A stretch of DNA of 32,000 nucleotides from Megasphaera elsdenii DSM 20460 (GTDB taxonomy: Bacteria > Bacillota > Negativicutes > Veillonellales > Megasphaeraceae). The notes under the pieces are model-generated. The model made no database searches, had not been told where the DNA came from, and saw only the letters and a list, made by a program, of their open reading frames with translations. Below, in pieces: positions 1,991 through 22,313 of this stretch. Every line of letters starts with the position of its first letter. Within the stretch, counting starts at the first letter, position 1. The stretch lies in contig NZ_CP027570.1 in assembly GCF_003010495.1 (NCBI RefSeq), positions 1,890,001 to 1,922,000 on the forward strand, written 5' to 3'. A program made the translations under genes and the position numbers.

Positions 1991-1997
1991 CGAGATG

Positions 1998-2032
1998 AAA
2001 AAAAGCTTGTCGTATAACGGCAAGCTTTTTTT
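1998..2032 (+). terminator. rho-independent terminator of aspS
   Basis: aaaaaaagcttgtcg-tataa-cggcaagcttttttt is a GC-containing stem followed by a T run. The A run on the 5' side could make it bidirectional. Confidence 0.85.
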
Positions 2033-2326
2033 CGTGGCTCGTGGTTCGTGATTCGTGGCTTGTGGTTCGTGGCTCGTGATTCGTGGCTCGTGGTTCGTGG
2101 CTCGTGATTCGTGGCTCGTGGCTCGTGGTTCGTGATTCGTGGCTTGTGGTTCGTGGCTCGTGATTCGTGGCTCGTGGTTCGTGGCTCGTGATTCGTGGCT
2201 CGTGGCTCGTGGCTCGTGATTCGTGGCTCGTGGCTCGTGGTTCGTGGCTCGTGATTCGTGGCTCGTGGCTCGTGGTTCGTGGCTCGTGGTTCGTGGCTCG
2301 TGGTTCGTGGCTCGTGGTTCGTGGTT
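2033..2326 (+). repeat. 42 uninterrupted tandem heptamers
   Basis: Hand-parsed in perfect 7-bp register from 2033 to 2326. Unit counts: CGTGGCT x22, CGTGGTT x10, TGTGGTT x2, CGTGATT x8. Units 1-12 (2033-2116) are identical to units 13-24 (2117-2200), an 84-bp higher-order repeat. The last unit runs straight into CGTAGGGG of the next repeat. Confidence 0.97.
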
Positions 2327-2830
2327 CGTAGGGGCCGTCCCAAAGGGCGGCCCGCTGTGATATTTGACCACAGCCCGTTCTGGTATTATGGTGAGCCTTT
2401 CTTCGGACTCCGATGCAGCTTCGCCGCGACAGACTCATGATTGTATTACGACCAAGTGTTGTCCGTCATAAATTCCGGTTGTGTACAGGATTCAGGCGGG
2501 ACGCCTTGACAGGACGTCCCCTACGGTATCGCAGACAGGCGATGAAAAAATGAACGCTGGCCGTAAATGGCAGCTCGCAAAAATATACGGCCTGTGGTCA
2601 TGTGAGTAAGGGTCCGTCCTGATAAGGAAGCCCGTGTGTGGGAATCCCGTAAATCGCTTCGTGGCTAGCAATCAGCCGTCAGCCGCGGTCCCATGGACCG
2701 CTTTCGTAGGGGCCGTCCCAAAGGGCGGCCCGCTGTGATATTTGACCACAACCCGTTCTGGTATTATGGTAAGCCTTTCAGGTGCTACTATGCGGACGCG
2801 ATTGGTTTACGAGCCACGAACCACTAACAC
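2327..2830. repeat. cluster of four REP-like units (GTAG + GC hairpin + conserved tail) with a terminal mini heptamer array
   Basis: Forward units: 2328-2355 (GTAGGGGCCGTCC-CAAA-GGGCGGCCCGC) and 2706-2733. Reverse unit: 2495-2524 (reverse complement GTAGGGGACGTCC-TGTCAA-GGCGTCCCGCC). Degenerate forward unit: 2606-2650 (GTAAGGGTCCGTCC-TGATAA-GGAAGCCCGTGTGTGGGAATCCCGT). Segments 2327-2401 and 2705-2779 are 75-bp direct repeats with 2 mismatches. ACGAGCC ACGAACC heptamers in the opposite orientation lie at 2809-2829. Confidence 0.85.
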
Positions 2831-2864
2831 ACATATTGACAAATGTCAATGTGTGCGTTATACT
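2831..2864 (+). promoter_or_regulatory. ars promoter with overlapping palindromic operator
   Basis: TTGACA (2836-2841), 17 nt, TATACT (2859-2864). The perfect palindrome ATTGACA-AA-TGTCAAT (2835-2850), extended by CACAT/GTGTG, overlaps the -35. This is the classic layout for ArsR autorepression. Confidence 0.8.
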
Positions 2865-2908
2865 CTAACCATAGATTGATAAACTTCGATATGAAAGGAG
2901 GCATCGTG

Positions 2909-3220
2909 ATGGACGAAAGGGAAGCAGTCCGCGTTTTTAAAGCCTTGGGCGATGAAAAACGCCTGCGCATTTTGTCGCTCCTGCGGCAAGGGGAACGGTG
3001 TGCCTGTGTACTCTTGGAACACTTGAACTTGTCCCAGCCGACGCTGTCCCATCACATGAAGATTCTTTGCGAGGCCCGGCTGGTCACAGGCCGCAAAGAA
3101 GGGAAGTGGGTCTATTATTCCCTCAATACGGCGCAAGCCCCGGTCCTGGAACAGGCCGTACACGACTTATTTCAACTCAGTGCCGTGCCGGCAGAGGACG
3201 AAGCCTGCCATTGCCAGTAA
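2909..3220 (+). CDS. arsR: ArsR/SmtB-family arsenite-responsive repressor
   Basis: I place the start at ATG 2909 (MDEREAVRVFKALGDEKRLRILSLL) behind GAAAGGAGG. The metalloid site resembles ELCVCDL (ERCACVLLEHL). The HTH is LSQPTLSHHMKIL. It is the first gene of the arsDA-acr3 operon. Confidence 0.9.
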   Translation: MDEREAVRVFKALGDEKRLRILSLLRQGERCACVLLEHLNLSQPTLSHHMKILCEARLVTGRKEGKWVYYSLNTAQAPVLEQAVHDLFQLSAVPAEDEACHCQ

Positions 3221-3236
3221 GGCAGGTTTCTTTTTT
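3204..3236 (+). terminator. weak hairpin + T run between arsR and arsD (possible attenuator)
   Basis: cctgcc (3204-3209) pairs with ggcagg (3221-3226) and is followed by tttctttttt. The stem is only 6 bp with an 11-nt loop. Confidence 0.4.
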
Positions 3237-3286
3237 AGCTAATACATTGATAAATGTAAATATATGAATTTTTTAGGAAGTCTTTT

Positions 3287-3778
3287 ATGATGAAACATAT
3301 GGAAATCTTTGAACAAGCAATGTGCTGCCCGACCGGTCTCTGCGGTCCTTCTATCGACCCGGAACTCTTGCGCGTATCGACCGTTTTGGACACGCTCAAA
3401 CAGCATGGCATCGACGTCGGCCGCTATAACTTGACCAGTGCGCCTTTGAAATTCGTCCAGACGAAGGCCGTTACGGACTTCCTCCAGCACCACGGCCCGG
3501 AAGACCTGCCCCTCATCCTCGTCGACGGCGCCGTCCAGTTTGCCGGCCGCTATCCGACGAATGATGAATTTGCCAGCCTCATCGGCTTCGACCCGGCCAT
3601 CCTCGAAGCAGCCCAGGCTGCTGGGGAAAGCTGCTGCTGCGGCGATAGCGCCGAAGAAACGGCTTCCTGCTGCTGCAGCGATGCACCGGCTGAAAGTGAA
3701 GCTTCTTCCTGTTGTTGTGGCGATGCACCGGCAGAACCGGAAAGCTCGTCGTGCTGCTGCGGAGGTGACTGCAAGTGA
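3287..3778 (+). CDS. arsD: arsenic metallochaperone ArsD with an extended Cys-triplet repeat tail
   Basis: MMKHMEIFEQAMCCPTGLCG matches the ArsD N-terminal Cys12/Cys13/Cys18 motif. AGGAAG lies 7 nt upstream. The tail (3626-3775) carries four CCC triplets. Confidence 0.9.
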   Translation: MMKHMEIFEQAMCCPTGLCGPSIDPELLRVSTVLDTLKQHGIDVGRYNLTSAPLKFVQTKAVTDFLQHHGPEDLPLILVDGAVQFAGRYPTNDEFASLIGFDPAILEAAQAAGESCCCGDSAEETASCCCSDAPAESEASSCCCGDAPAEPESSSCCCGGDCK

Positions 3779-5508
3779 TCCTCTATGATCCCTTTCGCGT
3801 CGTCCAGACGAAATACCTCTTCCTGACCGGCAAGGGCGGCGTCGGCAAGACGTCTGTCGCCTGTGCTACGGCTGTCGCTCTGGCCGATGCCGGGAAGAAG
3901 GTCCTGCTCATCAGTACCGACCCGGCGTCGAACCTGCAAGACGTCTTTTCTATGGAACTGACTAACAAGGCTACGGCCATTGACGCCGTGCCTAATCTGG
4001 CTGTGGCCAATCTGGATCCGGTCCAGGCCGCTGCCGAATATAGGGAAAGCGTCATCGGCCCTTATCGCGGCCTTTTGCCGGAAGCAGCCCTGCGCAACAT
4101 GGAAGAACAGCTGTCCGGCTCTTGTACTGTAGAAATCGCCGCCTTCAATGAGTTCACCAATTTCCTCACCGACGAAACCGTCGCCCGCGATTACGACCAC
4201 ATCCTTTTCGATACGGCGCCGACAGGCCACACCCTGCGCATGCTGCAGCTGCCGTCGGCGTGGAGCCAGTTCATCCAGAAGAGCAAACACGGCGCGTCCT
4301 GCCTGGGCCAGCTGTCGGGGCTGGAATCGCGGAAAGAACTGTACAAGCAGGCCGTCCAGACCCTGGCCGACGGGGCTCAGACGACGATGCTCCTCGTCGC
4401 CCGTCCCGATAGCCTGCCCCTGAAAGAAGCGGCGCGGGCGTCGAAGGAACTGGCCGCCCTGGGCATTGCCAACCAGCAGCTCATCATCAACGGCCTCCTG
4501 CCTTCCTACGATGACGATGCGACCAAGACCTTATATGAAAAGCAGCAGGCTGCCTTGCAGGCCATGCCTGGGGCTATTTCCGATTTACCGCGTTTCCAGA
4601 TTCCCTTGCGGACGTACAATATCACCGGCTTGGACCACGTCCGGGCCCTGCTCAAAGGGGAAGTGAAGGAAGCGGCGACGGAACTGACGCTGGAATGGGT
4701 CCAGCCCCTGCAGGCCGTCATCGACGATTTGGAAAGCAGCCATCGCAAGGTCATCTTCACCATGGGCAAAGGCGGCGTCGGTAAGACGACTGTCGCCGCA
4801 GCCATCGCCTTGGGCCTGGCCCGCCGCGGCCATCGCGTCCACTTGACGACGACCGACCCGGCCGCCCATTTGCAGTATATCGTCAGCCAGACGGACAACC
4901 TGACCTTGAGCCATATCGACGAAGGGGAAGAGCTGAGAAAATACCAGGATGAAGTCCTGAACCAGGCCAAAGCCAACGGCCTGGGCCCGTCGGACCTGGC
5001 CTATATCGAAGAAGACCTGCGTTCGCCGTGCACCCAAGAAATTGCCGTCTTCCACGCCTTTGCCGATATCGTCGAAGCCGCCGACGACCAGATCGTCGTC
5101 ATCGACACGGCGCCGACAGGCCATACGCTGCTGCTCCTGGAATCGACGGAAAGCTACGATAAGGAAATCCGCCGGACCCATGGCTCGACGCCGCCGTCGG
5201 TACAGCACTTGCTGCCGCGTCTGAAAGGGAAGGAAACGGAAGTCGTCATCGTCACCTTGCCCGAAGCGACGCCGGTATACGAAGCCCTGCGCCTGGAAGC
5301 GGACCTGAAGCGGACCAAGCTGCGCTCGAAGTGGTGGGTCATCAACAAGTCCTTTTATCAGGCCAAGACGACGAGCCCTTTGTTAAAGGCCAAAGCCTCG
5401 CATGAAATCCCTTGGATCAACAAAGTCGATGAACATACAAAAGGCCACACGGCCCTCATCGCCTGGCGCCCAGATGAAGTCCGCGGCGACGTCCTAGGGA
5501 CGTTGTAG
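3775..5508 (+). CDS. arsA: arsenite-stimulated ATPase ArsA (two-domain)
   Basis: The GTG start overlaps the arsD stop (GTGA) and is preceded by GGAGGTGA. There are two P-loops (GKGGVGKTSVACA, GKGGVGKTTVAAA) and two DTAPTGHTL signature motifs, consistent with the A1 and A2 halves. Confidence 0.97.
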   Translation: MILYDPFRVVQTKYLFLTGKGGVGKTSVACATAVALADAGKKVLLISTDPASNLQDVFSMELTNKATAIDAVPNLAVANLDPVQAAAEYRESVIGPYRGLLPEAALRNMEEQLSGSCTVEIAAFNEFTNFLTDETVARDYDHILFDTAPTGHTLRMLQLPSAWSQFIQKSKHGASCLGQLSGLESRKELYKQAVQTLADGAQTTMLLVARPDSLPLKEAARASKELAALGIANQQLIINGLLPSYDDDATKTLYEKQQAALQAMPGAISDLPRFQIPLRTYNITGLDHVRALLKGEVKEAATELTLEWVQPLQAVIDDLESSHRKVIFTMGKGGVGKTTVAAAIALGLARRGHRVHLTTTDPAAHLQYIVSQTDNLTLSHIDEGEELRKYQDEVLNQAKANGLGPSDLAYIEEDLRSPCTQEIAVFHAFADIVEAADDQIVVIDTAPTGHTLLLLESTESYDKEIRRTHGSTPPSVQHLLPRLKGKETEVVIVTLPEATPVYEALRLEADLKRTKLRSKWWVINKSFYQAKTTSPLLKAKASHEIPWINKVDEHTKGHTALIAWRPDEVRGDVLGTL

Positions 5509-5548
5509 CTTGTATTTCAATTTATCTGTTTATAGGAGGTTCCTTATC

Positions 5549-6583
5549 ATGGAACATGAATCACAGACCGGCATCAGTTTTTTTCAGCGCTATCTGACCC
5601 TTTGGGTTTTGTTATGCATGGTTGTCGGCGTAGCCATCGGGTATGCCCTTCCGGCTGTCCCGGCCTTTTTAGATACGTTACAGGTCATGGGGATTTCCAT
5701 TCCCATTGCTATTTTGATTTGGGTCATGATTTACCCGATGATGATGAAAGTCGACTTTCAGAGCATCAAAGCCGTAGGACGCCAGCCTAAAGGCCTGTTC
5801 GTCACGTGGATTGCCAACTGGCTCATTAAGCCGTTTACCATGTATGCCATTGCCTGGTTCTTCCTTTTTGTCCTTTTCAGTTCCTGGATTCCGACAGATC
5901 TGGCTCGTCAATACTTAGCTGGAGCCGTACTGCTCGGTGCGGCTCCCTGCACGGCCATGGTTTTCGTCTGGAGTACCCTGGCCAATGGGAATCCGGCCTA
6001 TACCGTCATCCAGGTTGCGACGAATGACTTGATCATCCTCATCGCTTTCGTACCTATCGTCAAGTTCCTCTTAGGCGTTTCACAAGTCACGGTGCCTTAT
6101 AGTGTCCTCTTTGTCAGTATCTTTCTGTTCGTCGTCATTCCCTTGGCAGGCGGTATCCTGACTCGGATGACAGTAGTTAAGCGAAAAGGCCTCGATTATT
6201 TTGAACAGCACTTTGTCCACAAATTCGATTCGGCAACGACTTGGGGCCTGTTACTGACGCTGGTCATTATCTTCAGCTCTCAGGCCCAGGTCATCTTATC
6301 GAATCCGCTTCACATCGTGCTCATCGCCATTCCGCTGACAGTGCAGACTTTCCTCATCTTCTTCCTTGCCTACGGAGCCTGCCGGCTGCTGAAACTGCCC
6401 TTTGACATTGCCGCCCCGGCTGGCTTCATCGGTGCTTCTAACTTTTTTGAATTAGCCGTTGCCGTAGCCATCGCCCTGTTTGGTGTTACCAGCCCGGCAG
6501 CCCTGGCGACGACTGTCGGCGTCCTGACGGAAGTCCCGATTATGCTGACCCTGGTCCGTATCGCCTTAGCTACCAGAAACTAA
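5549..6583 (+). CDS. acr3: ACR3-family arsenite efflux permease
   Basis: I place the start at ATG 5549 (MEHESQTGISFFQRYLTLWV) behind AGGAGG. It is a multi-TM protein with the ACR3 hallmark LGAAPCTAMV. Confidence 0.94.
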   Translation: MEHESQTGISFFQRYLTLWVLLCMVVGVAIGYALPAVPAFLDTLQVMGISIPIAILIWVMIYPMMMKVDFQSIKAVGRQPKGLFVTWIANWLIKPFTMYAIAWFFLFVLFSSWIPTDLARQYLAGAVLLGAAPCTAMVFVWSTLANGNPAYTVIQVATNDLIILIAFVPIVKFLLGVSQVTVPYSVLFVSIFLFVVIPLAGGILTRMTVVKRKGLDYFEQHFVHKFDSATTWGLLLTLVIIFSSQAQVILSNPLHIVLIAIPLTVQTFLIFFLAYGACRLLKLPFDIAAPAGFIGASNFFELAVAVAIALFGVTSPAALATTVGVLTEVPIMLTLVRIALATRN

Positions 6584-6596
6584 TTTATAGCTACGA

Positions 6597-6757
6597 ACGG
6601 CCGCCCCACGTGGTCGCCCCTACAGAAACCCCATCCACGAACCATGAGCTACGAGCCACGAACCACGAACCACGGGATTCCCACAAGCGGGCCGCCTTTA
6701 CAGGACGGCCCCTACGAGCCACGAACCACGAGCCACGAACCACGAGCCACGAGCCAC
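6597..6757 (-). repeat. REP-like hairpins alternating with heptamer arrays (minus orientation)
   Basis: REP units lie at 6599-6623 (ends CCCCTAC) and 6687-6715 (GCGGGCCGCC-TTTACA-GGACGGCCCCTAC). Heptamers (CCACGAA, ACGAGCC, ACGAACC) lie at about 6636-6675 and 6714-6755. These are the reverse complements of the units at 2033-2355. Confidence 0.85.
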
Positions 6758-6758
6758 T

Positions 6759-6795
6759 AAAAAAGCGGCTGTCTTCAAAGGACAGCCGCTTTTTC
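6759..6795. terminator. bidirectional terminator shared by acr3 and the convergent oxidoreductase gene
   Basis: aaaaa-agcggctgtc-ttcaaag-gacagccgct-ttttt is a 10-bp perfect stem with an A run on one side and a T run on the other. Confidence 0.88.
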
Positions 6796-8307
6796 CTATT
6801 TCCCTTCGTAATAATACCGCGTCCACATGACGACTTCCGACAGGGACGGGTGAGGCGTCATGGTTTCGCTGAAGGTATAGACCGATTTGGGGTCGAGGGT
6901 CCGCGTCAGCGGTTTGGCCCGCAAGGCCTGGGCCGTAGGCGATGCAATGTCTTCATGGATCGGATGGATGACGTGGGTGCCGCTCATGAGGTTATTGATG
7001 AAAGGCTGGATGAGGATGGACGCTTCGGGGCCGATGATGTGGGCGCCGAGGATGAATTTCGTCTTCTTGTCGACGACCAGTTTGATGAAGCCGTCGTCTT
7101 CGTCACCCGGTTCATAGCCCATGGCGTAGCCTTTGGCCGATGATGAATAGTGGTTGATGGCCCGTTCGACGTCGTAGCCTTTCTTCAGGGCCTGGTCTTC
7201 CGTCAGGCCGACGTGAGCCGCTTCAGGATAGGTGTAGGTGACGGCCGGTACTGCATCGTAATCGGCCCAGCGCCATGTTTCCGGGGCGTTTCCGGAAAAG
7301 AGGTTGTGCGCCAGGATTTCCGCTTCGTAATTGGCCTTGTGGCGGAAGGGGGCCATGCCGTTGACGTCGCCCAGGGCCCAGATATTCTCAGCCGTCGTTT
7401 CCAGAAATTCGTTCGTTTCGATGTAGCCGCGCTTGTCCAGGCGGACGTCGGTATTTTCCAGGTGCAGCAGTTCCGTCATGGGCCGGATGCCCGGGGCGAC
7501 CAGGATTTCTTCAGCTGCCACTTCGCCTTCTTCGCCGGTCGTGCGGTCGCGGAAGGACAAGACCTTCAGGCCGTCGCGCTGGCTGACGGAAACCGTGTCT
7601 TTATTGAGGCGGATATCCATGCCGTAACGCTGGAACTGCTTGAGGATGAACGCCGATACAGCCGGGTCTTCCTTGGGTAAGAGGCGGACATTGTGCTGGA
7701 CCATAGTGACCTTGGTGCCAGCCGCATCGAAGACGTGGGCGAATTCACAGCCAATCGGGCCGCCGCCGATGATGATCAGGCTCTGGTAGGGCTTTTTCGG
7801 ATATGACGGGCCAAAGAACGATTCCGACGTCACATAGCCCGCTTCTGCCAGGCCCGGCAGGGCGGGGATATTCGTCCGGCCGCCAGTGGCGATGAGAACC
7901 TTGTCGCCCGTCAAGGTGGCGCTGGTGCCGTCATTCAAGGCGATGGCGACCGTGTGATTGTCGACGAAAGACGCCGTGCCGTTGAAGGTGTCGACGTTGG
8001 GGAACTGGTCATAATAACCTTGAATGGCCGGGCTTTCATCGATCTTTTCCCACAACCGCTTCGATAACATATCCCAGTCCAGGCGGACGTTGTCAGCCAA
8101 GACGCCGATGCGGCTCCCTTCGCGGATCTCGCGGATGCGGTTGGCCGCCGTGACCATGACCTTTGTCGGAATACAGCCGCGGTTCAGACAAGTCCCGCCG
8201 AACCGGCCCCGTTCAATGACAGCCACCTGCAAGCCCTGGGCCAGGGCCGCATCAGTCACAATGTTGGCTGCCCCCGTGCCGATGACAATGACATCATATT
8301 TCTTCAT
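6796..8307 (-). CDS. class I pyridine-nucleotide-disulfide oxidoreductase (dihydrolipoyl dehydrogenase / glutathione-reductase-like)
   Basis: ORF 6796..8661. I place the start at ATG 8307 (MKKYDVIVIGTGAAN, a GxGxxG FAD fold) behind AAAGGAG. The redox-active disulfide is GGTCLNRGCIPTK, the second dinucleotide fold is IIGGGPIGCEFA, and the C-terminal interface motif is HPSLSE. The upstream 118 codons of the ORF run through REP repeats and are not coding. Confidence 0.9.
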   Translation of the reverse strand: MKKYDVIVIGTGAANIVTDAALAQGLQVAVIERGRFGGTCLNRGCIPTKVMVTAANRIREIREGSRIGVLADNVRLDWDMLSKRLWEKIDESPAIQGYYDQFPNVDTFNGTASFVDNHTVAIALNDGTSATLTGDKVLIATGGRTNIPALPGLAEAGYVTSESFFGPSYPKKPYQSLIIIGGGPIGCEFAHVFDAAGTKVTMVQHNVRLLPKEDPAVSAFILKQFQRYGMDIRLNKDTVSVSQRDGLKVLSFRDRTTGEEGEVAAEEILVAPGIRPMTELLHLENTDVRLDKRGYIETNEFLETTAENIWALGDVNGMAPFRHKANYEAEILAHNLFSGNAPETWRWADYDAVPAVTYTYPEAAHVGLTEDQALKKGYDVERAINHYSSSAKGYAMGYEPGDEDDGFIKLVVDKKTKFILGAHIIGPEASILIQPFINNLMSGTHVIHPIHEDIASPTAQALRAKPLTRTLDPKSVYTFSETMTPHPSLSEVVMWTRYYYEGK

Positions 8308-8404: not shown

Positions 8405-8500
8405 ATAGCCACGAACCACGGACCACGAAAACCCCACAAGCGGGCCGCCTTTACAGGACGGCCCCTACAAATCACGAGCCACGAACCACGAGCCACGAAA
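8405..8500 (-). repeat. REP-like hairpin flanked on both sides by short heptamer arrays
   Basis: GCGGGCCGCC-TTTACA-GGACGGCCCCTAC lies at 8440-8468, with the hairpin identical to that of the 6687-6715 copy. CCACGAA/CCACGGA units lie at 8409-8430 and GCCACGA/ACCACGA units at 8471-8498. Confidence 0.85.
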
Positions 8501-8633: not shown

Positions 8634-8900
8634 ATGTTAAGCGTAGAAGAAAAAAAAGCAATCGTAGCTAAATTTGGTGCCAATGAAAACGATACGGGTT
8701 CTCCGGAAGTACAGATCGCGCTCCTCACGAGCCGCATCATCTATTTGACGGAACATCTCCGCAGCCACAAAAAGGACCATGCATCCCGCCGCGGCTTGTT
8801 GAAACTCGTCGGCCAGCGCCGTAACTTGCTCGGTTACTTGCAGAAACACGATCTCGACCGTTATCGTGCTATTCTCGAAAAATTGAACTTGCGTAAATAA
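8634..8900 (+). CDS. rpsO: 30S ribosomal protein S15
   Basis: 88 aa: [63 protein letters not shown]. The RBS is GGAGGAAAG. The gene is followed by pnp. Confidence 0.97.
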
Positions 8901-8956: not shown

Positions 8957-9022
8957 CACAGGGTGGTAGGTTGTAGCCTGGGTATATCGCCGATGTTCCC
9001 GGACTAGTGCCTATCACCTGTG
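8957..9022 (+). promoter_or_regulatory. long imperfect stem-loop in the pnp 5' leader
   Basis: cacagggtggtagg (8957-8970) pairs with cctatcacctgtg (9010-9022). In E. coli, a leader hairpin cut by RNase III mediates PNPase autoregulation. An equivalent role here is inference. Confidence 0.5.
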
Positions 9023-9039
9023 AATTCAAGGAGGTAACA

Positions 9040-11193
9040 ATGGAAGAACAGAAATTCCAAATGGATTTCGCCGGCCGCCCGCTGGTAATTGAAGTCGGTA
9101 AACTGGCTAAGCAGGCCAGCGGTGCCGCATTGGTCCGTTATGGTGACACCGCCGTTTTCGTCACGGCTACGGGCTCGAAAGAAGCGCGTGAAGACGCAGA
9201 CTTTTTCCCGCTCACCGTCGATTATGAAGAAAAGATGTACTCCGTCGGCAAGATTCCCGGCGGCTTCATCAAACGCGAAGGCAAACCGCCTGAATCGGCA
9301 ACCCTTTTTGCCCGCCTCATCGACCGTCCGATCCGTCCGCTCTTCCCGAAGACATACCGTCATGACGTCCACGTCGTGGCTTATGATTTCTGCGTAGACC
9401 ATGACAACGCTCCGGAAATCGCCGCTATGATCGGTGCCTCCGTATCGCTGTGCATGTCCCACATTCCCTTTGCCGGCCCGATTGCCGGTGTCCGCGTCGG
9501 CCGCGTCGATGGCCAGTTCGTCATCAACCCGACCGTCGCCCAGAGCGAACAGAGCGATATGGACATCGTCGTCGCCGGTACGAAAGACGCCATCCTCATG
9601 GTTGAAGGCGGCGCTCACGAAATCCCGGAAGAACAGGTCCTGGATGCCATCATGTTCGCCCATGAAGAAATCAAGAAAGTCGTCGAATTCCAGCTCGGCT
9701 TCCTCGACAAGATTTCCGTACCGAAACAGGAATTCGTCGAAAAAGAACCGCCGGCAGATATCGTCGAAGCCGTCCATGCTTATGGCGAAGAAGCCATGAA
9801 GACGGCTATCTTCACGGCTGACAAAGTCGAACGCGAAGAAAAGATGGACGCTGTCGAAGCCGATATTTATGAACACTTTGCCGACATTTATCCGGACAAC
9901 GCCGATGATGTCGCTGAAATCACGCAGAAAATGATCAAGGAAATCGTCCGCCACATGATCGCCGTCGACAAGATCCGTCCTGACGGCCGCCGTGTCGACG
10001 AAGTCCGTCCGGTCAGCTGCGAAGTCGGTCTCTTTGCCCGCACTCACGGCACTGGCTTGTTCACCCGCGGCCAGACGCAGATTATGAGCTTCTGCACGTT
10101 GGCACCGCTGTCGGAATGCCAGCATATTGATGGCGTCGGCTTGGAAACGGATCGCCGCTACATGCACCACTATAATTTCCCGTCCTTCTGCGTCGGCGAA
10201 ACGAAGTCGTCCCGCGGTCCTGGCCGTCGTGAAATCGGCCACGGCAAATTGGCAGAACGCGCATTGACCCAGGTCATGCCCAGTGAAGAAGAATTCCCCT
10301 ACGCTATCCGCGTCGTATCGGAAGTCCTCGAATCGAATGGCTCCAGCTCCATGGGCAGTGTCTGCGGCAGCACCTTGGCCTTGATGGATGCAGGCGTACC
10401 AATCAAAGCGCCTGTTGCCGGCGTCGCCATGGGCTTGGTTACTAAAGGTGATGACTTCACCATCCTGACGGATATCCAGGGCATGGAAGATGCTTTGGGC
10501 GACATGGACTTTAAAGTCGCCGGCACTATGAAAGGTGTCACGGCTATCCAGATGGATATCAAGATCAAAGGCCTCAGCCGTGAAATCCTGGCCCAGGCTT
10601 TGAAACAGGCCCACGAAGGCCGCATGCACATCATGGGCAAGATGCTGCAGGTCATCAACGAACCGCGAAAGGAGCTCTCTCCGTATGCTCCGCGCATCAT
10701 CTCCATGCACATCAAGCCGGATAAGATCCGCGACGTCATCGGGCCGGGCGGCAAGATGATCAAACAGATTACCGAAGAAACAGGCGCTAAGATCGACATC
10801 GACGATTCGGGCCTGGTATACATTGCCGCTGTCGACGGCGAAAGCGGCCAGAAAGCCAAAGAATGGATTGAAAAACTGACGGAAGACGTTGAAGTCGGCA
10901 AGACCTACGTCGGCAAAGTCACGCGCATCATGAACTTCGGCGCCTTCGTCGAAGTCCTGCCGGGCAAAGAAGGGCTGGTCCACATTTCCCAGCTGGCCAA
11001 GGAACGCGTCGAAAAAGTCGAAGACGTCGTCCACGTCGGCGATGAAATCATGGTCAAATGCGTCGAAATCGACAGCCAGGGCCGGGTCAACTTGTCCCGC
11101 AAAGCCCTCTTGGGTGGCGGCGACGAAGGCCCGTCCCATCGCAGCCGGGGTCCCCGCGGCGGTCATAACAGCCACGACCGCCAGAAACGGTAA
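9040..11193 (+). CDS. pnp: polyribonucleotide nucleotidyltransferase (PNPase)
   Basis: I place the start at ATG 9040 ([29 protein letters not shown]) behind AAGGAGG. It has two RNase PH-like halves, a KH region ([21 protein letters not shown]) and an S1 region ([21 protein letters not shown]). Confidence 0.97.
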
Positions 11194-14868: not shown

Positions 14869-14869
14869 A

Positions 14870-14920
14870 GTTTGTAGTTTGTAGTTTACAGTGTAGGGGC
14901 GCCCATGCGGGGCGCCCGCC
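14870..14920 (+). repeat. REP-like GTAG hairpin preceded by three GTTTGTA-type heptamers
   Basis: GTTTGTA GTTTGTA GTTTACA (14870-14890) is followed by GTGTAGG. The GTAG is at 14893-14896 and the hairpin GGGGCGCCC-ATGC-GGGGCGCCC runs to 14920. Confidence 0.8.
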
Positions 14921-18410: not shown

Positions 18411-18740
18411 ATGAAAAGAATTGCATTAATTCTAGGATTGATTCTCGCCTTATTTACTTTTTCTGCTGGCGCTTCTGCATGTCCGTATTGTGGAGCTCCA
18501 GGTTATTTCACAGGGGAAAGAGGAAACAATTATAGTAATTCGTGGGATGTATATCAATGTTCGAATGGTCATCGATATGATGTCCCTAATACTCTTTCTG
18601 GCAGTACTTCTGGCCCAAGAAATAATTGTCCGTATTGTGGAGCTCCAGCTTATTTTACAGGGGAAAGAGGAAATAATTACGGCAATTGGTGGGATGTATA
18701 CCAATGTTCGAATGGGCATCGATATAATGTTCCTGACTAA
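18411..18740 (+). CDS. small exported protein with a duplicated CPYCG...CSNGH module
   Basis: ATG lies behind AAAGGAG. The N-terminus is MKRIALILGLILALFTFSAGASA-CPYCG. Two 36-aa repeats lie at 18480-18587 and 18627-18734. Confidence 0.7.
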   Translation: MKRIALILGLILALFTFSAGASACPYCGAPGYFTGERGNNYSNSWDVYQCSNGHRYDVPNTLSGSTSGPRNNCPYCGAPAYFTGERGNNYGNWWDVYQCSNGHRYNVPD

Positions 18741-18872: not shown

Positions 18873-20435
18873 TTATACCGTAACTTCGATGCCGGATTTA
18901 AATTTGACTAGAAAATGGTCGGGAAATATGGTGATTTTCTCGATGATTTTCCGAATGGTAATTTCGTTAAATTCTGTGATCTGCGTAGGATGTTCTCTAA
19001 TGAATTTTTTCAAGTCTTCGAGGCGTTTGATATTTGCCTGCTGGCTCAGATTATTTTGTTCAGCTTCTTCCTGTTGTTCCCGAAGGCGAAAGATTTCATT
19101 GGCAATGGCATTATAGTTCTGGCGATTCGTAGCATGCTGAATGAGCTCTTGCTGTAATTCGTCCAGGCGTTTTTGGATACATTCTGGTGAAAGTGTATCG
19201 TTTTTTATAATGGTCTTGGTGATGTTTTTCTGCATCTGCAGCAAGAAGGTGTGGCTATCAGAAAGTATGTGGTTCATGGCCTTCATTGTGATTTCCTTCA
19301 GTAGATTTTCGTTCACTGTTCGATTGGTACAGTTTATCTCGGCGCCTCTTGGATCTAGGCGGCTGATGCAGCGCCAGACGATAGATTTGTGACCTCGATT
19401 GTTCCAATGGACGCGACGGTACAATTCGCCGCAAACGCCGCAGTAGGTAATTTGGGCAAAACAGTTATTACTGGAAAAACTATGCCTTTGGCCGGAAGGG
19501 CTGATATGGACAATGCGACGGCGAACTAACTCAGCTTGTACCTGGAGAAATATGTCTTTAGGAATAATGGCCTCATGATCATTTTCAACATAGTATTGCG
19601 GGACGAAACCGTTATTCTTGACACGTTTTTTGGTGAGAAAATCGACGGTATATGTTTTTTGCAAAAGCGCATCACCCATATACTTTTCGTTCCGCAAGAT
19701 TTTATTAATCGTACTGTCATGCCATTTTTTTCGTCCGGCGCCAGTGAGGATGCCATCTGCTTCTAAATGCTTTCCTATTTTTTTCATACTATAGCCTTCG
19801 AGGTATTCGCGATAAATGCGCTTGACGACTTCTGCTTGTTCCGGATCGATGATAAGATGGCCGTTTTCGTCTTTGGTATAACCGAGAAAATGTTTATGAT
19901 TGACCTGTACTTTACCTTGCTGGTAACGGTACTGGAGGCCTAGCTTTACATTTTGGGAAAGAGATTCTGATTCTTGCTGGGCTAAACTGGCCATGATGGT
20001 GATCAGCACTTCACCTTTGGCGTCCATCGTGTTGATGGATTCTTTTTCAAAAAGGACTGGAATATTTTTTTCTTTAAGCTGACGGATGTATTTCAGGCAA
20101 TCGAGGGTATTGCGGGCGAAGCGGCTGATGGACTTGGTGATGATCATGTCGATGTTGCCAGCCATACATTCCTGGATCATACGGTTGAATTCATTGCGCT
20201 TTTTCGTGTTTGTACCCGAAATGCCGTCATCAGCAAAGATGCCGGCGAGAACCCAATCCGGATGGCTGCTGATGAATTCTTTGTAATGCGAAACTTGCGT
20301 TTCATAACTTGTTTCTTGTTCATCCGAATCGGTACTGACCCGGCAGTAGGCAGCTACACGCAGCTTCTTTTGTTCCGGTTCTTTTTCGATATTTCCCATG
20401 CGTTTTCTGGCGGGGATGATCATAACTTTTTTCAT
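18873..20435 (-). CDS. large serine recombinase (third gene of the triplet)
   Basis: The resolvase catalytic N-terminus is [21 protein letters not shown], with DDGISGT and SRFARN. It has a recombinase domain, a zinc ribbon [25 protein letters not shown] and a coiled-coil tail. Its start overlaps the upstream stop (TAATG). Confidence 0.93.
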
Positions 20436-20749
20436 TATATTGCCTCGCTTTCAATGAGACTATAGAGATATTCTGCCTGCAGCCTCGGATCGTCATAGTG
20501 TTCTTCTGCCTTATCGAAGGTCTCCTGATCGATGATGGCCGGGTAGAAATCGTCGCCGAGGTAATGCCTGTTTTGCATCAGGCGCTTTGCCGAGCTGTGG
20601 TAGGTCTCGATCCCTGCCTCGATGGCCGCTTTTGACTGTGCCATCCCAGCAAAGTAATTCTCATAAAGTTTCCTGATCTTAGCGGCTTCTTCTTCGTGAA
20701 TCACAGCGCAGCCGTTTTCGATTCTGTAGCCGTATGGTGTGTGCCCCAT
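20435..20749 (-). CDS. recombinase-domain-only protein lacking the catalytic serine domain
   Basis: 104 aa. [33 protein letters not shown] aligns with the post-catalytic segments PPYGYDWNGEQMVVNPEQAAVVKEIF and [26 protein letters not shown] of its two neighbours. It has no YxRVS motif. Confidence 0.7.
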
Positions 20750-20753
20750 GTTC

Positions 20754-22313
20754 TCACTTCCTTTCCCTGAGCGTCAGACCGCATTTGAGCTCGAAGCGGA
20801 TGTCATTTCTGGAATGTACGATGATCCGCTTTACAAACCTTTCAAAAAGATCGACGTCGAACTCGTGCAGCATGGCACTCTTTTCCGCAAAGTGCATCAG
20901 CGCCGTGGCTTCGGTGACCTTTGTCACATCCCCGGAGACCGTATTCTTTAGTGCGTCGATCTCATCCCGGAAGGTGTCCGCCTGCGAGAGCAGCTCGTTC
21001 GTCTCCTGACTGTAGAGCACCGGGTCGATGATGCCTTGCGTCATGAGCTTGGTGAGCGTTTCTCTCTTCTCGGTGTTCTGCGTCAGCAGGGTCTGTATCT
21101 GTTGAATGCGCCGGAGAGAATCATCTGTCGACACATTCTTAATTGCTTCCAAGTAGGGCTTCAGGATCAGCCGATGTGAGAAGATCAGCTTGTTCATCAT
21201 TGTGATGAATGCCAGCTTCAGAGCCTCATCCTTCACAAAAAGCATGTGGCATCTGTTCTTATCCACGATGTGGGTGTTGCAGCACCATGCAGCGTATTTG
21301 TATCCGGTGCAGCTGTGAATCCGGCGCTTGAAGGTGTCGTCGCATTCTCCGCAGATGATTTTTCCGGAGAAAACGTAGCGGTTCTGGTATTTTTCGGTGC
21401 CTTTGACGACACCTTTCTCTGACGCCCGCTGTTTCACAAAAGCCTGTGCCGCTTCAAAATCCTCCCGACTGATGATCGGCTCGTGGTGATCCCTGACCAT
21501 GTACTGCGCCTGCTCACCGTGGTTGCTATGCCGGACAAATTGTGAATCCGAGTAGGTTTTCTGGAAAAGGCAGTCGCCGACGTACTTTTCGTTTGAAAGC
21601 ATCCCGCGAATGGTCGTGGCCGTCCATCGTCCGCCTCGCTTGGAAGGAACACCGCGCTGGTTCAGGTCATCCGCAATGGCGTGTGTGCCTTTGCCGGAGA
21701 GCAGGGCTGTGAAGATTTCCTTAACCACAGCCGCCTGTTCCGGATTGACGACCATCTGCTCACCATTCCAGTCGTAACCGTAGGGCGGGTAACTGCATTT
21801 GAAGGTTCCATTCTCGAAGCGCTTTTGGATTGACCATTTGCTGTTTTCCGAAATGGAAACTGACTCGCCTTCGGCCATGCTGGAGAGGATCGCCAGAAAA
21901 AGCTCGCTCTCCATCGAGCCGGTGTTGATGTTTTCTTTTTCAAAGAAAATGGGAATGCGCAGGGCGAGCAGCTTTCTAACCAGCTCTAAGCAGTCTGTTG
22001 TATTCCTACTGAAGCGGCTGATGGACTTTGTGATGATGAAATCCACCTTACCGGCCTTGCAGTCGTCGATGAGCCTCAAAAGCTCCGGACGCTTATCCTT
22101 CTTGGTGCCGGTGATGCCTTCGTCGTAGTAGAGGCCTGCAAACTCCCAGTCATCACGGGAAGTGATGTAATTTTCGTAGTGAGTTTTCTGAGCCTCAAGG
22201 CTTTCAAGCTGTGCATCGGAATCCGTAGAGACGCGGCAGTAAGCGGCTACCTTGATCTTCTTGAGCTTCACTTTTGCGCTCGTCGCTTGCTCTATTTTCG
22301 TTACTTTTCTCAA
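20754..22313 (-). CDS. large serine recombinase (first gene of the triplet)
   Basis: [28 protein letters not shown] and SRFSRN, plus a zinc ribbon CGECDDTFKRRIHSCTGYKYAAWCC. The next start lies 4 nt after its stop. Confidence 0.93.
   Translation of the reverse strand: MRKVTKIEQATSAKVKLKKIKVAAYCRVSTDSDAQLESLEAQKTHYENYITSRDDWEFAGLYYDEGITGTKKDKRPELLRLIDDCKAGKVDFIITKSISRFSRNTTDCLELVRKLLALRIPIFFEKENINTGSMESELFLAILSSMAEGESVSISENSKWSIQKRFENGTFKCSYPPYGYDWNGEQMVVNPEQAAVVKEIFTALLSGKGTHAIADDLNQRGVPSKRGGRWTATTIRGMLSNEKYVGDCLFQKTYSDSQFVRHSNHGEQAQYMVRDHHEPIISREDFEAAQAFVKQRASEKGVVKGTEKYQNRYVFSGKIICGECDDTFKRRIHSCTGYKYAAWCCNTHIVDKNRCHMLFVKDEALKLAFITMMNKLIFSHRLILKPYLEAIKNVSTDDSLRRIQQIQTLLTQNTEKRETLTKLMTQGIIDPVLYSQETNELLSQADTFRDEIDALKNTVSGDVTKVTEATALMHFAEKSAMLHEFDVDLFERFVKRIIVHSRNDIRFELKCGLTLRERK

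Follow-up and report, generated by a model that had tools for sequence, protein, structure and literature searches.

A heptamer array between aspS and the ars operon

We analyzed a 32,000-nt stretch of the Megasphaera elsdenii DSM 20460 chromosome (the window; coordinates are window positions unless another locus is named), in which an array of 7-bp units lies between the aspS gene and an arsenic resistance (ars) operon. By direct parsing, the array consists of 42 heptamers over 294 bp on the plus strand (2033-2326), in perfect register and uninterrupted, with CGTGGCT occurring 22 times, CGTGGTT 10 times, CGTGATT 8 times and TGTGGTT twice. Units 13-24 are an exact repeat of units 1-12, forming an 84-bp higher-order duplication, and the unit order at the 3' end is C T C T C T C T T. 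Tandem Repeats Finder (TRF) detected the array with periods of 14 and 21 at scores of 449 and 430, far above chance. The first array base sits directly 3' of the T7 run of the aspS terminator, and at the opposite end the array continues in register into CGTAGGGG, the head of a GC-rich hairpin. The parse and its unit counts, the 12-unit duplication and the fusion of the final unit to this hairpin had been described in an earlier note made from the letters alone, and all were reproduced here.

The plus-strand aspS gene (95-1990) was recognized by its Pfam tRNA-synt_2, GAD and anticodon OB domains. Its intrinsic terminator (1997-2032, plus strand), a hairpin with a 17-bp stem followed by the T7 run (-21.1 kcal/mol, z -6.96), was missed by a simple terminator scan and is clear on folding. 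Downstream of the array, Pfam assignments place arsR (2843-3220), arsD (3287-3778), arsA (3775-5508) and an acr3-type permease gene (5510-6583) on the plus strand, followed by a gene for a pyridine-nucleotide disulfide oxidoreductase on the minus strand (6796 to ~8310) and by rpsO (8634-8900) and pnp (9007-11193) on the plus strand. The arsR promoter (TTGACA-17-TATACT, an 11/12 match) has its -35 at 2836, and the array ends 510 bp upstream of this -35 and downstream of the aspS terminator. A perfect palindrome, ACACATATTGACAAATGTCAATGTGT, overlaps the promoter (2830-2864), with a short tract of inverted heptamers stopping immediately upstream; from its sequence, the palindrome is probably the ArsR operator. 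No match to Rfam at gathering thresholds was found in the window, array included, and ARAGORN reported no transfer RNA or transfer-messenger RNA in it.

Several structural readings of the array were rejected. Self-structure or cruciform formation is disfavored by folding, in which the array was less stable than its shuffled controls (z +1.8 / +2.4), and a G-quadruplex by the units CGTGGCT, CGTGGTT and CGTGATT, whose longest G run is GG, leaving no G3 runs. On inspection, a reading akin to clustered regularly interspaced short palindromic repeats (CRISPR) was set aside given the 7-bp period and the absence of spacers.

Unit number at one spacer ranges from 0 to 52

When the orthologous aspS-arsR spacer was compared across M. 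elsdenii assemblies (loci other than the window carry L numbers), we found 0 units in L141, 1 in L129, 2 in L127, L130 and L128, 3 in L123 and L137, 4 in L138, 14 in L135, 27 in L136 and L139, 31 in L131 (with the pattern T16 C8 T C3 T3), 32 in L134, 42 in the window and 52 in L133. Two further contigs end inside the array, after at least 22 units (L140) and at least 14 units (L142). The two-unit alleles differ in their surroundings, with a REP-type hairpin (see below) next to the units in L127 and L130, and no REP cluster at all in L128, where CGTGGTT CGTGGT is followed directly by ACGAGC and the ars promoter. The AspS proteins of L133 through L142 are all 100% identical to that of the window, and several strains with identical AspS thus differ in unit number at this spacer. 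The suggestion in the earlier note that this is a slippage-prone, length-variable tract is strongly supported by these alleles.

The long alleles share a common 5' end (CTACtC) and a common 3' end (CTCTT) around a variable interior, and alleles with one copy as well as alleles with two copies of the 12-unit block exist. As far as can be read from the sequences, conserved ends with a variable interior are the pattern expected from internal gain and loss of units. The tract upstream of rpsO behaves similarly: it has 1-9 units among strains, some strains lack the adjoining REP, and in two strains another heptamer family (AAACTTC type) takes its place. Short tracts beside the arsR and rpsO promoters are kept in all strains, with unit number and even unit family varying.

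The unit count of the type strain

An older record of the type strain, HE576794.1, matches the window flanks with 0 mismatches over 2214 + 16784 bases and thus represents the same strain, but its array is interrupted by 543 N (L124 2936-3478). To the left of this gap it holds units 1-26 plus CGT, and to the right TGGCT plus the last 30 units, so that the window array is an exact merge of both ends with a minimal overlap of 14 units. The count of 42 is therefore insecure and may be a lower bound for the type strain, and the caution about assembly collapse voiced in the earlier note proved relevant.

These observations raise the possibility that the array is real while its length and higher-order structure in the window are products of assembly, the true array being longer, perhaps ~135 units, and collapsed to the minimal overlap of its ends. 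Besides the gap and the merge, the two M. elsdenii contigs that stop within the array and at least 11 CGTGRYT arrays at contig ends among the matches listed from other genomes (see below) speak for such a collapse. Against it, the window contains no N and may derive from the PacBio/Canu assembly of the same strain, CP027570, at >200x coverage, whose authors called the older record a draft (PMC6346161); both array ends of HE576794 are fully consistent with the 42-unit sequence, and the sizes of scaffold gaps are rough estimates. The 12-unit duplication is probably real, because the two-copy block also occurs in the independent contigs L133 and L139. On balance we consider a collapsed array possible but doubtful.

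The array is non-coding

The earlier note had described the array as open in all frames on both strands. This holds for the minus strand only: the CGTGATT units place TGA stops in all three plus-strand frames (3, 3 and 2 stops), and only the minus frames are open, which give rise to three spurious minus-strand open reading frames (ORFs) at 215-2371, 1687-2343 and 1929-2438. A search with a minus-strand ORF of 169 aa against 5.8 billion proteins yielded neither an exact match nor a domain; all hits were further spurious ORFs lying across arrays of this kind. Among them, P0001 comes from the orthologous spacer of another strain, where the array has 31 units, and was used as an allele above.

That the array encodes a repetitive protein of HEPRATN type on the minus strand is hardly credible. 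The three open minus frames would allow it, and such ORFs have been called in other assemblies (P0001, P0043), but a perfect heptamer repeat necessarily encodes one and the same 7-aa peptide whichever of the three frames is read, the ORFs extend antisense into aspS, and those called across such arrays lack a Pfam domain. In addition, most strains have 0-4 units, and no reading frame is preserved between alleles because the unit numbers 31, 32 and 52 are not divisible by three.

In another lineage, the same DNA heptamer array lies in frame within dephospho-CoA kinase genes (P0007, P0012, P0019, P0020, P0031, P0044 and others), where the insertions are runs of EPRxTxH 7-aa repeats that vary in length between cluster representatives.

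Heptamers and hairpins form a dispersed module

The hairpin into which the array runs is one copy of a repetitive extragenic palindromic (REP)-type element, an imperfect palindrome composed of GTAGGGGCCGTCC, a loop of 4-6 nt and GGCGGCCCGC, with a conserved GTAG head. The window contains five exact heads (2328+, 2524-, 2706+, 6715-, 8468-) and two divergent ones (6624-, 24604-), all extragenic, and the hairpins fold at -18 to -21 kcal/mol. Same-strand CGTGGYT units occur at the head, or no more than 13 nt from it, in 4 of the 7, and the order gene, terminator, heptamers and REP is found twice, after aspS on the plus strand and after the oxidoreductase gene on the minus strand.

The REP adjoining the array (2327-2357, plus) starts with a C and the GTAG head at 2328, so that the array register runs on into the element, and continues with the palindrome GGGGCCGTCC-CAAA-GGGCGGCCCGC (-21.1 kcal/mol, z -3.4). 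It belongs to a 77-nt module (2325-2401), the remainder of which (2358-2401, plus) comprises a small second hairpin (CTGTG..CACAG) and a promoter-like TTGACC-17-TATGGT (2364-2392, 9/12). A second copy of the module (2703-2779, plus), 378 bp away and 97% identical, has its REP head at 2706 preceded by TTC and no heptamers. Between the two copies, the minus strand carries a third REP (2495-2524), which is of a second subtype (GTAGGGGACGTCC...GGCGTCCCGCC) and likewise has no heptamers at its head. Three inverted heptamers (2809-2829, minus; ACGAGCC ACGAACC ACTAAC-like), which number 1-5 units in other strains, then lie immediately upstream of the arsR -35.

Downstream of acr3, a divergent REP copy (6601-6624, minus; GTAGGGGCGACC..GGGGCGGC) is followed by a degenerate heptamer tract of ~5.7 units (6636-6674, minus) and a further REP copy (6687-6715, minus). 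The head of this copy is in register with a six-unit tract (6716-6757, minus), which separates it from the terminator-like hairpin of the oxidoreductase gene (6760-6792, minus), read by eye only as GCGGCTGTC..GACAGCCGC with flanking A/T runs. In the divergent spacer between the oxidoreductase gene and rpsO, three heptamers on the REP tail side (8407-8427, minus) precede a REP copy (8440-8468, minus) that is present or absent between strains and four heptamers at its head (8470-8497, minus), directly upstream of the rpsO promoter region. The shorter arrays mentioned in the earlier note thus exist at 2809-2829, 6636-6757 and 8407-8497, but all of them are inverted, on the opposite strand to the main array.

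Across gut metagenome contigs, a scan for two units fused to the REP head returned at least 115 contigs with 120 junctions, carrying 2 units in 22 cases, 3 in 48, 4 in 26, 5 in 5, 6 in 3, 7 in 2, 8 in 6, 9 in 2, 10 in 1, 11 in 3 and 13 in 2. The junctions, at least 120 in number and with a mode of 3 units, fall in ~41 distinct upstream-flank groups; the REP core is conserved across sites while the 3' flanks are site-specific, and unit number varies within flank groups too (for example 2-11, 4-11 and 3-8). From this distribution, the normal state of the module is 2-5 units, and the window array is an extreme expansion of one copy. Long tracts also occur elsewhere: at an unrelated locus (L132), 27 units separate two inverted REPs, and in another Megasphaera species (L112) a 21-unit array adjoins a REP.

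In inverted orientation, 55 nt of the 6716-6757 region are 96% complementary to 2286-2340. A composite transposon, with the ars operon carried between inverted arrays, was considered on account of this match and rejected, as the terminator-heptamer-REP module recurs at numerous unrelated sites and nearly all strains seen have the ars operon at this position.

Relation of the units to the REP head

REP copies without an array still carry TTC before GTAG, and the resulting head, TTCGTAG, is one base apart from the array unit in the same register, TTCGTGG. In Megasphaera sp. WILCCON 0056 (L016 235-396), units change in single-base steps through TTAGTGG, CTAGTGG, CTAGGGG, TTAGGGG, TTAGTGG, TTCGTGG and CTCGTGG before reaching the CTCGTAG|GGGCC of the REP, and the unit TAGGGGC is a piece of the REP head itself. 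Because of this stepwise change, unit families appear to be interconvertible, and together with the one-base difference it suggests that tracts may have been seeded at the REP head. In its strongest form, this would mean that heptamer microsatellites are born at the GTAG head, with TTCGTAG copied into tandem TTCGTGG or YTAGGGG by hairpin-stalled replication or by a Y1-type nuclease that acts at the head, or else that the tracts are the landing pad of the REP. We regard so specific an origin as unlikely; if true, Megasphaera would offer a concrete and testable explanation of where the excess of 7-bp repeats across bacteria, so far unexplained, comes from.

In a related alternative, a mobile element resembling a REP or a miniature inverted-repeat transposable element, moved by a Y1 transposase of the REP-associated tyrosine transposase (RAYT) or IS200 type, would have the tracts as its ends or as its favored site of insertion, a long array then arising from repeated cleavage and joining and not from slippage. 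A GTAG head is a hallmark of RAYT substrates, inverted heptamer tracts bracket the aspS-arsR REP cluster and are still present, abutting, in the REP-less L128, and REPs are present or absent at orthologous sites. On the other hand, no RAYT was found in 1.28 Mb of partly redundant Megasphaera-derived loci, and the homogeneous unit blocks with nested duplications are typical of slippage. The lone Y1 transposase, in L122, was rejected as a RAYT, since the RAYT model has a cut-off of 80 bits and this protein reached 36.7, compared with 159 bits on NF033573; it is a classical IS200 transposase, and a tblastn search of the same loci with this protein returned no further Y1 gene. We therefore judge a transposase-driven array to be rather improbable.

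Insertion sequence (IS) genes do occur in or beside REP/heptamer zones. In L122, which lacks acr3, IS110-family and IS200 transposase genes lie at 2820-3968 and 7512-7967, and in L126 (18076-19333) and L129 (18079-19335) an IS605 OrfB (TnpB) gene is found ~120 nt from a REP of a GACGTCC subtype. Elsewhere in the window, a 108-nt direct repeat (18480-18587 and 18627-18734, 90%) lies within a small ORF, and two adjacent minus-strand ORFs (18873-20435 and 20754-22313), each of ~520 aa, share repeated segments. The counterpart of the first at the end of L124 matches large serine recombinase domains, the sole domain assignment for the pair, and the second would be a recombinase by its similarity to the first. 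The 108-nt repeat and the ORF pair (18873-22313) suggest an integrated element.

Evidence bearing on function

The earlier note had also proposed a cooperative protein-binding array, pointing out that three units equal 21 bp, or two helical turns. This spacing is arithmetic only, and the proposal finds no support in our data: most strains have few units, and single CGTGRYT motifs are not enriched outside repeat zones (12 observed versus 14.3 +/- 4.0 expected). A broader version, in which CGTG cores phased every 21 bp serve as a nucleoid or regulatory platform affecting aspS termination or ars expression, can draw on the short tracts directly upstream of the arsR and rpsO -35 regions in all strains, and on reporter data from Nostoc, where heptamer repeats were proposed as regulatory elements and tracts are suggested to modulate promoters (bioRxiv 10.1101/2022.06.06.494920). 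It is nevertheless very unlikely for the array studied here. The range of 0-52 units between strains with identical neighboring genes argues against a length-dependent role at this locus, other strains have a different heptamer family at the same promoter, and the long array follows a strong terminator and is separated from the arsR promoter by ~500 bp. The short tracts might still exert a weak spacer effect or one like that of an upstream promoter (UP) element.

We also rejected a phase-variation contingency locus, as the array lies neither in a coding region nor between -35 and -10 elements, but after the aspS terminator and far upstream of the arsR -35.

A hypervariable microsatellite at a REP head

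Taken together, we interpret the tract, with a probability of about 0.78, as a non-coding, hypervariable heptanucleotide microsatellite (a variable number tandem repeat, VNTR) of M. elsdenii, the expanded form of a short 2-5-unit tract that normally adjoins the GTAG head of a dispersed REP-type hairpin, frequently with an intrinsic terminator immediately before it. Such a tract could be seeded by duplication of the REP head or of the preferred flank of the REP, and could then gain and lose units by replication slippage and by unequal exchange among them. These processes would account for the block structure, the 84-bp duplication and the differences between strains. At this locus the long allele most likely has no sequence-specific function and is, we infer, neutral, merely adding distance between the aspS terminator and the REPs clustered upstream of the arsR promoter.

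Several points weigh against parts of this interpretation. Most alleles come from short-read metagenome assemblies, which may collapse repeats, so that single counts above ~15 units are uncertain. The REP-less L128 keeps its abutting units (CGTGGTT CGTGGT|ACGAGC), which fits a tract that serves as the REP target at least as well as one that grew from a REP; descent may have run either from REP head to heptamer or from tract to REP insertion target. Finally, short tracts persist near the arsR and rpsO promoters in all strains, and the short form may therefore have some function.

The hypervariable microsatellite is of practical as well as biological interest. As a marker, it discriminates sharply between strains of M. 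elsdenii, which lives in the rumen and gut and serves both as a probiotic and as a production chassis. It is also an assembly hazard: short-read assemblies break at the tract or collapse it, the first type-strain genome has a gap there, and spurious 'hypothetical proteins' derived from it are now in public databases. With it, a Negativicute joins the short list of lineages with heptamer-rich intergenic DNA, and the in-register junction with the GTAG REP head offers a lead on how heptamer repeats start.

Period-7 repeats in Megasphaera and other genomes

A TRF census of the window and 16 other Megasphaera loci (L016, L018, L121-L132), which are partly orthologous and partly selected for arrays and therefore give indicative numbers, was dominated by period 7, with 67 arrays of period 7 and 2 of period 14, against 19 of period 6, 27 of period 9, 14 of period 10 and 16 of period 12. 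The period-7 families include CGTGGYT, CTAGCCM, AGTTTGT, ACTAAAA, CAGCCGT and GTTTGAG. AGTTTGT, ACTAAAA and GTTTGAG/TCAAACT occur as facing inverted tracts around a short center, beside terminators (window 14869-14887; L122 2404-2491 and 7014-7047; L126 3738-3840; L130 4595-4687), and by their arrangement could form long hairpins. At orthologous intergenic sites, CCCCTAG/CTAGCCA (9 units), CAGCCGT/TAGCCGT and AAACTTC tracts replace CGTGGYT in some strains (L122 7192-7360; L122/L123 9751-9847; L128 9831-9867).

Beyond Megasphaera, scanning one genome per species for four CGTGRYT units gave more than 120 loci in many phyla. Among the matches listed, tract length is 4-21 units except for two tracts of 35 and 41, and the CGTAGGGG head abuts the tract in 3 of 126, all of them Megasphaera. 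The two longest come from unrelated phyla, with 41 units in a Solirubrobacterales metagenome-assembled genome (MAG; L025 6604-6954) and 35 in an Acidoferrales MAG (L115 4649-4893); these arrays and those of L043, L031 and L118 often lie directly beside other heptamer arrays (GGGATTC, GGGATAG, CGTGACT), and none has an adjoining GTAG hairpin. The earlier statement that 7-bp arrays this long are rare is thus fair as to length, but has to accommodate these two arrays and the 43 copies published for another heptamer (PMC4679880). A literature search on Megasphaera with heptanucleotide or tandem repeats found nothing.

Comparison with known repeat systems

Simple sequence repeats (SSRs) are known from contingency loci, such as the 7-bp repeats in the Haemophilus influenzae hmw promoters, where slippage changes copy number and a tract within a promoter can tune expression. 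The array described here differs in lying outside any promoter or coding region, between a housekeeping gene (aspS) and arsenic resistance genes rather than surface antigens, with no on/off logic evident. The hairpins in turn resemble E. coli REPs with their bacterial interspersed mosaic elements (BIMEs) and the paired REP elements (REPINs) of Pseudomonas, being ~30-nt imperfect palindromes with a conserved GTAG head that are extragenic, dispersed, in some cases arranged as inverted pairs, and present or absent between strains. Unlike classical REPs and REPINs, they have no associated RAYT gene in the loci searched and reside in a Negativicute, not a proteobacterium, and we know of no classical REP described with tandem heptamer tracts grown from its head.

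Among heptamer repeats, the TAACTGA repeats of Beggiatoaceae, cyanobacteria and Bacteroidetes (MacGregor 2015, PMC4679880) are likewise scattered intergenic direct repeats, mostly of 2-6 and rarely of up to 43 copies, as are, according to their citation in PMC4692102, the short tandemly repeated repetitive (STRR) heptanucleotides of cyanobacteria such as Calothrix. In this group, too, several heptamer families are possible per genome. TAACTGA tracts lie mostly a few nt upstream of start codons and have been proposed to act in translation, whereas the array here follows a terminator, ~800 bp from the next start codon.

Many bacteria have an excess of heptameric SSRs, and in Xanthomonas and Nostoc such repeats are numerous between genes and vary in length; slippage tied to the polymerase active site has been proposed as their explanation, with no function shown (PMC4692102). 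The GGGAATC repeats of Xanthomonas and the GGGGAYT repeats of Nostoc PCC 7120 (Rehm et al. 2015, PMC4692102) resemble the Megasphaera tracts in being tandem 7-bp units with a strong non-coding bias, near gene ends and in some inverted pairs, usually with ~4 units and occasionally long (26), that vary extensively in length and sequence between close relatives and have no established function. They differ in that their G-tract units form G-quadruplexes, whereas CGTGGYT has neither G3 runs nor self-structure. The Megasphaera tracts, moreover, join a GTAG REP hairpin without a break in register and, at 42-52 units, exceed the reported maxima. The array is thus not a new system; it belongs to a known class of bacterial repeats, the intergenic heptamer VNTRs, of which it is an unusually long representative, fused to a REP. 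Its notable features are its length, its polymorphism and its in-register link to the REP head.

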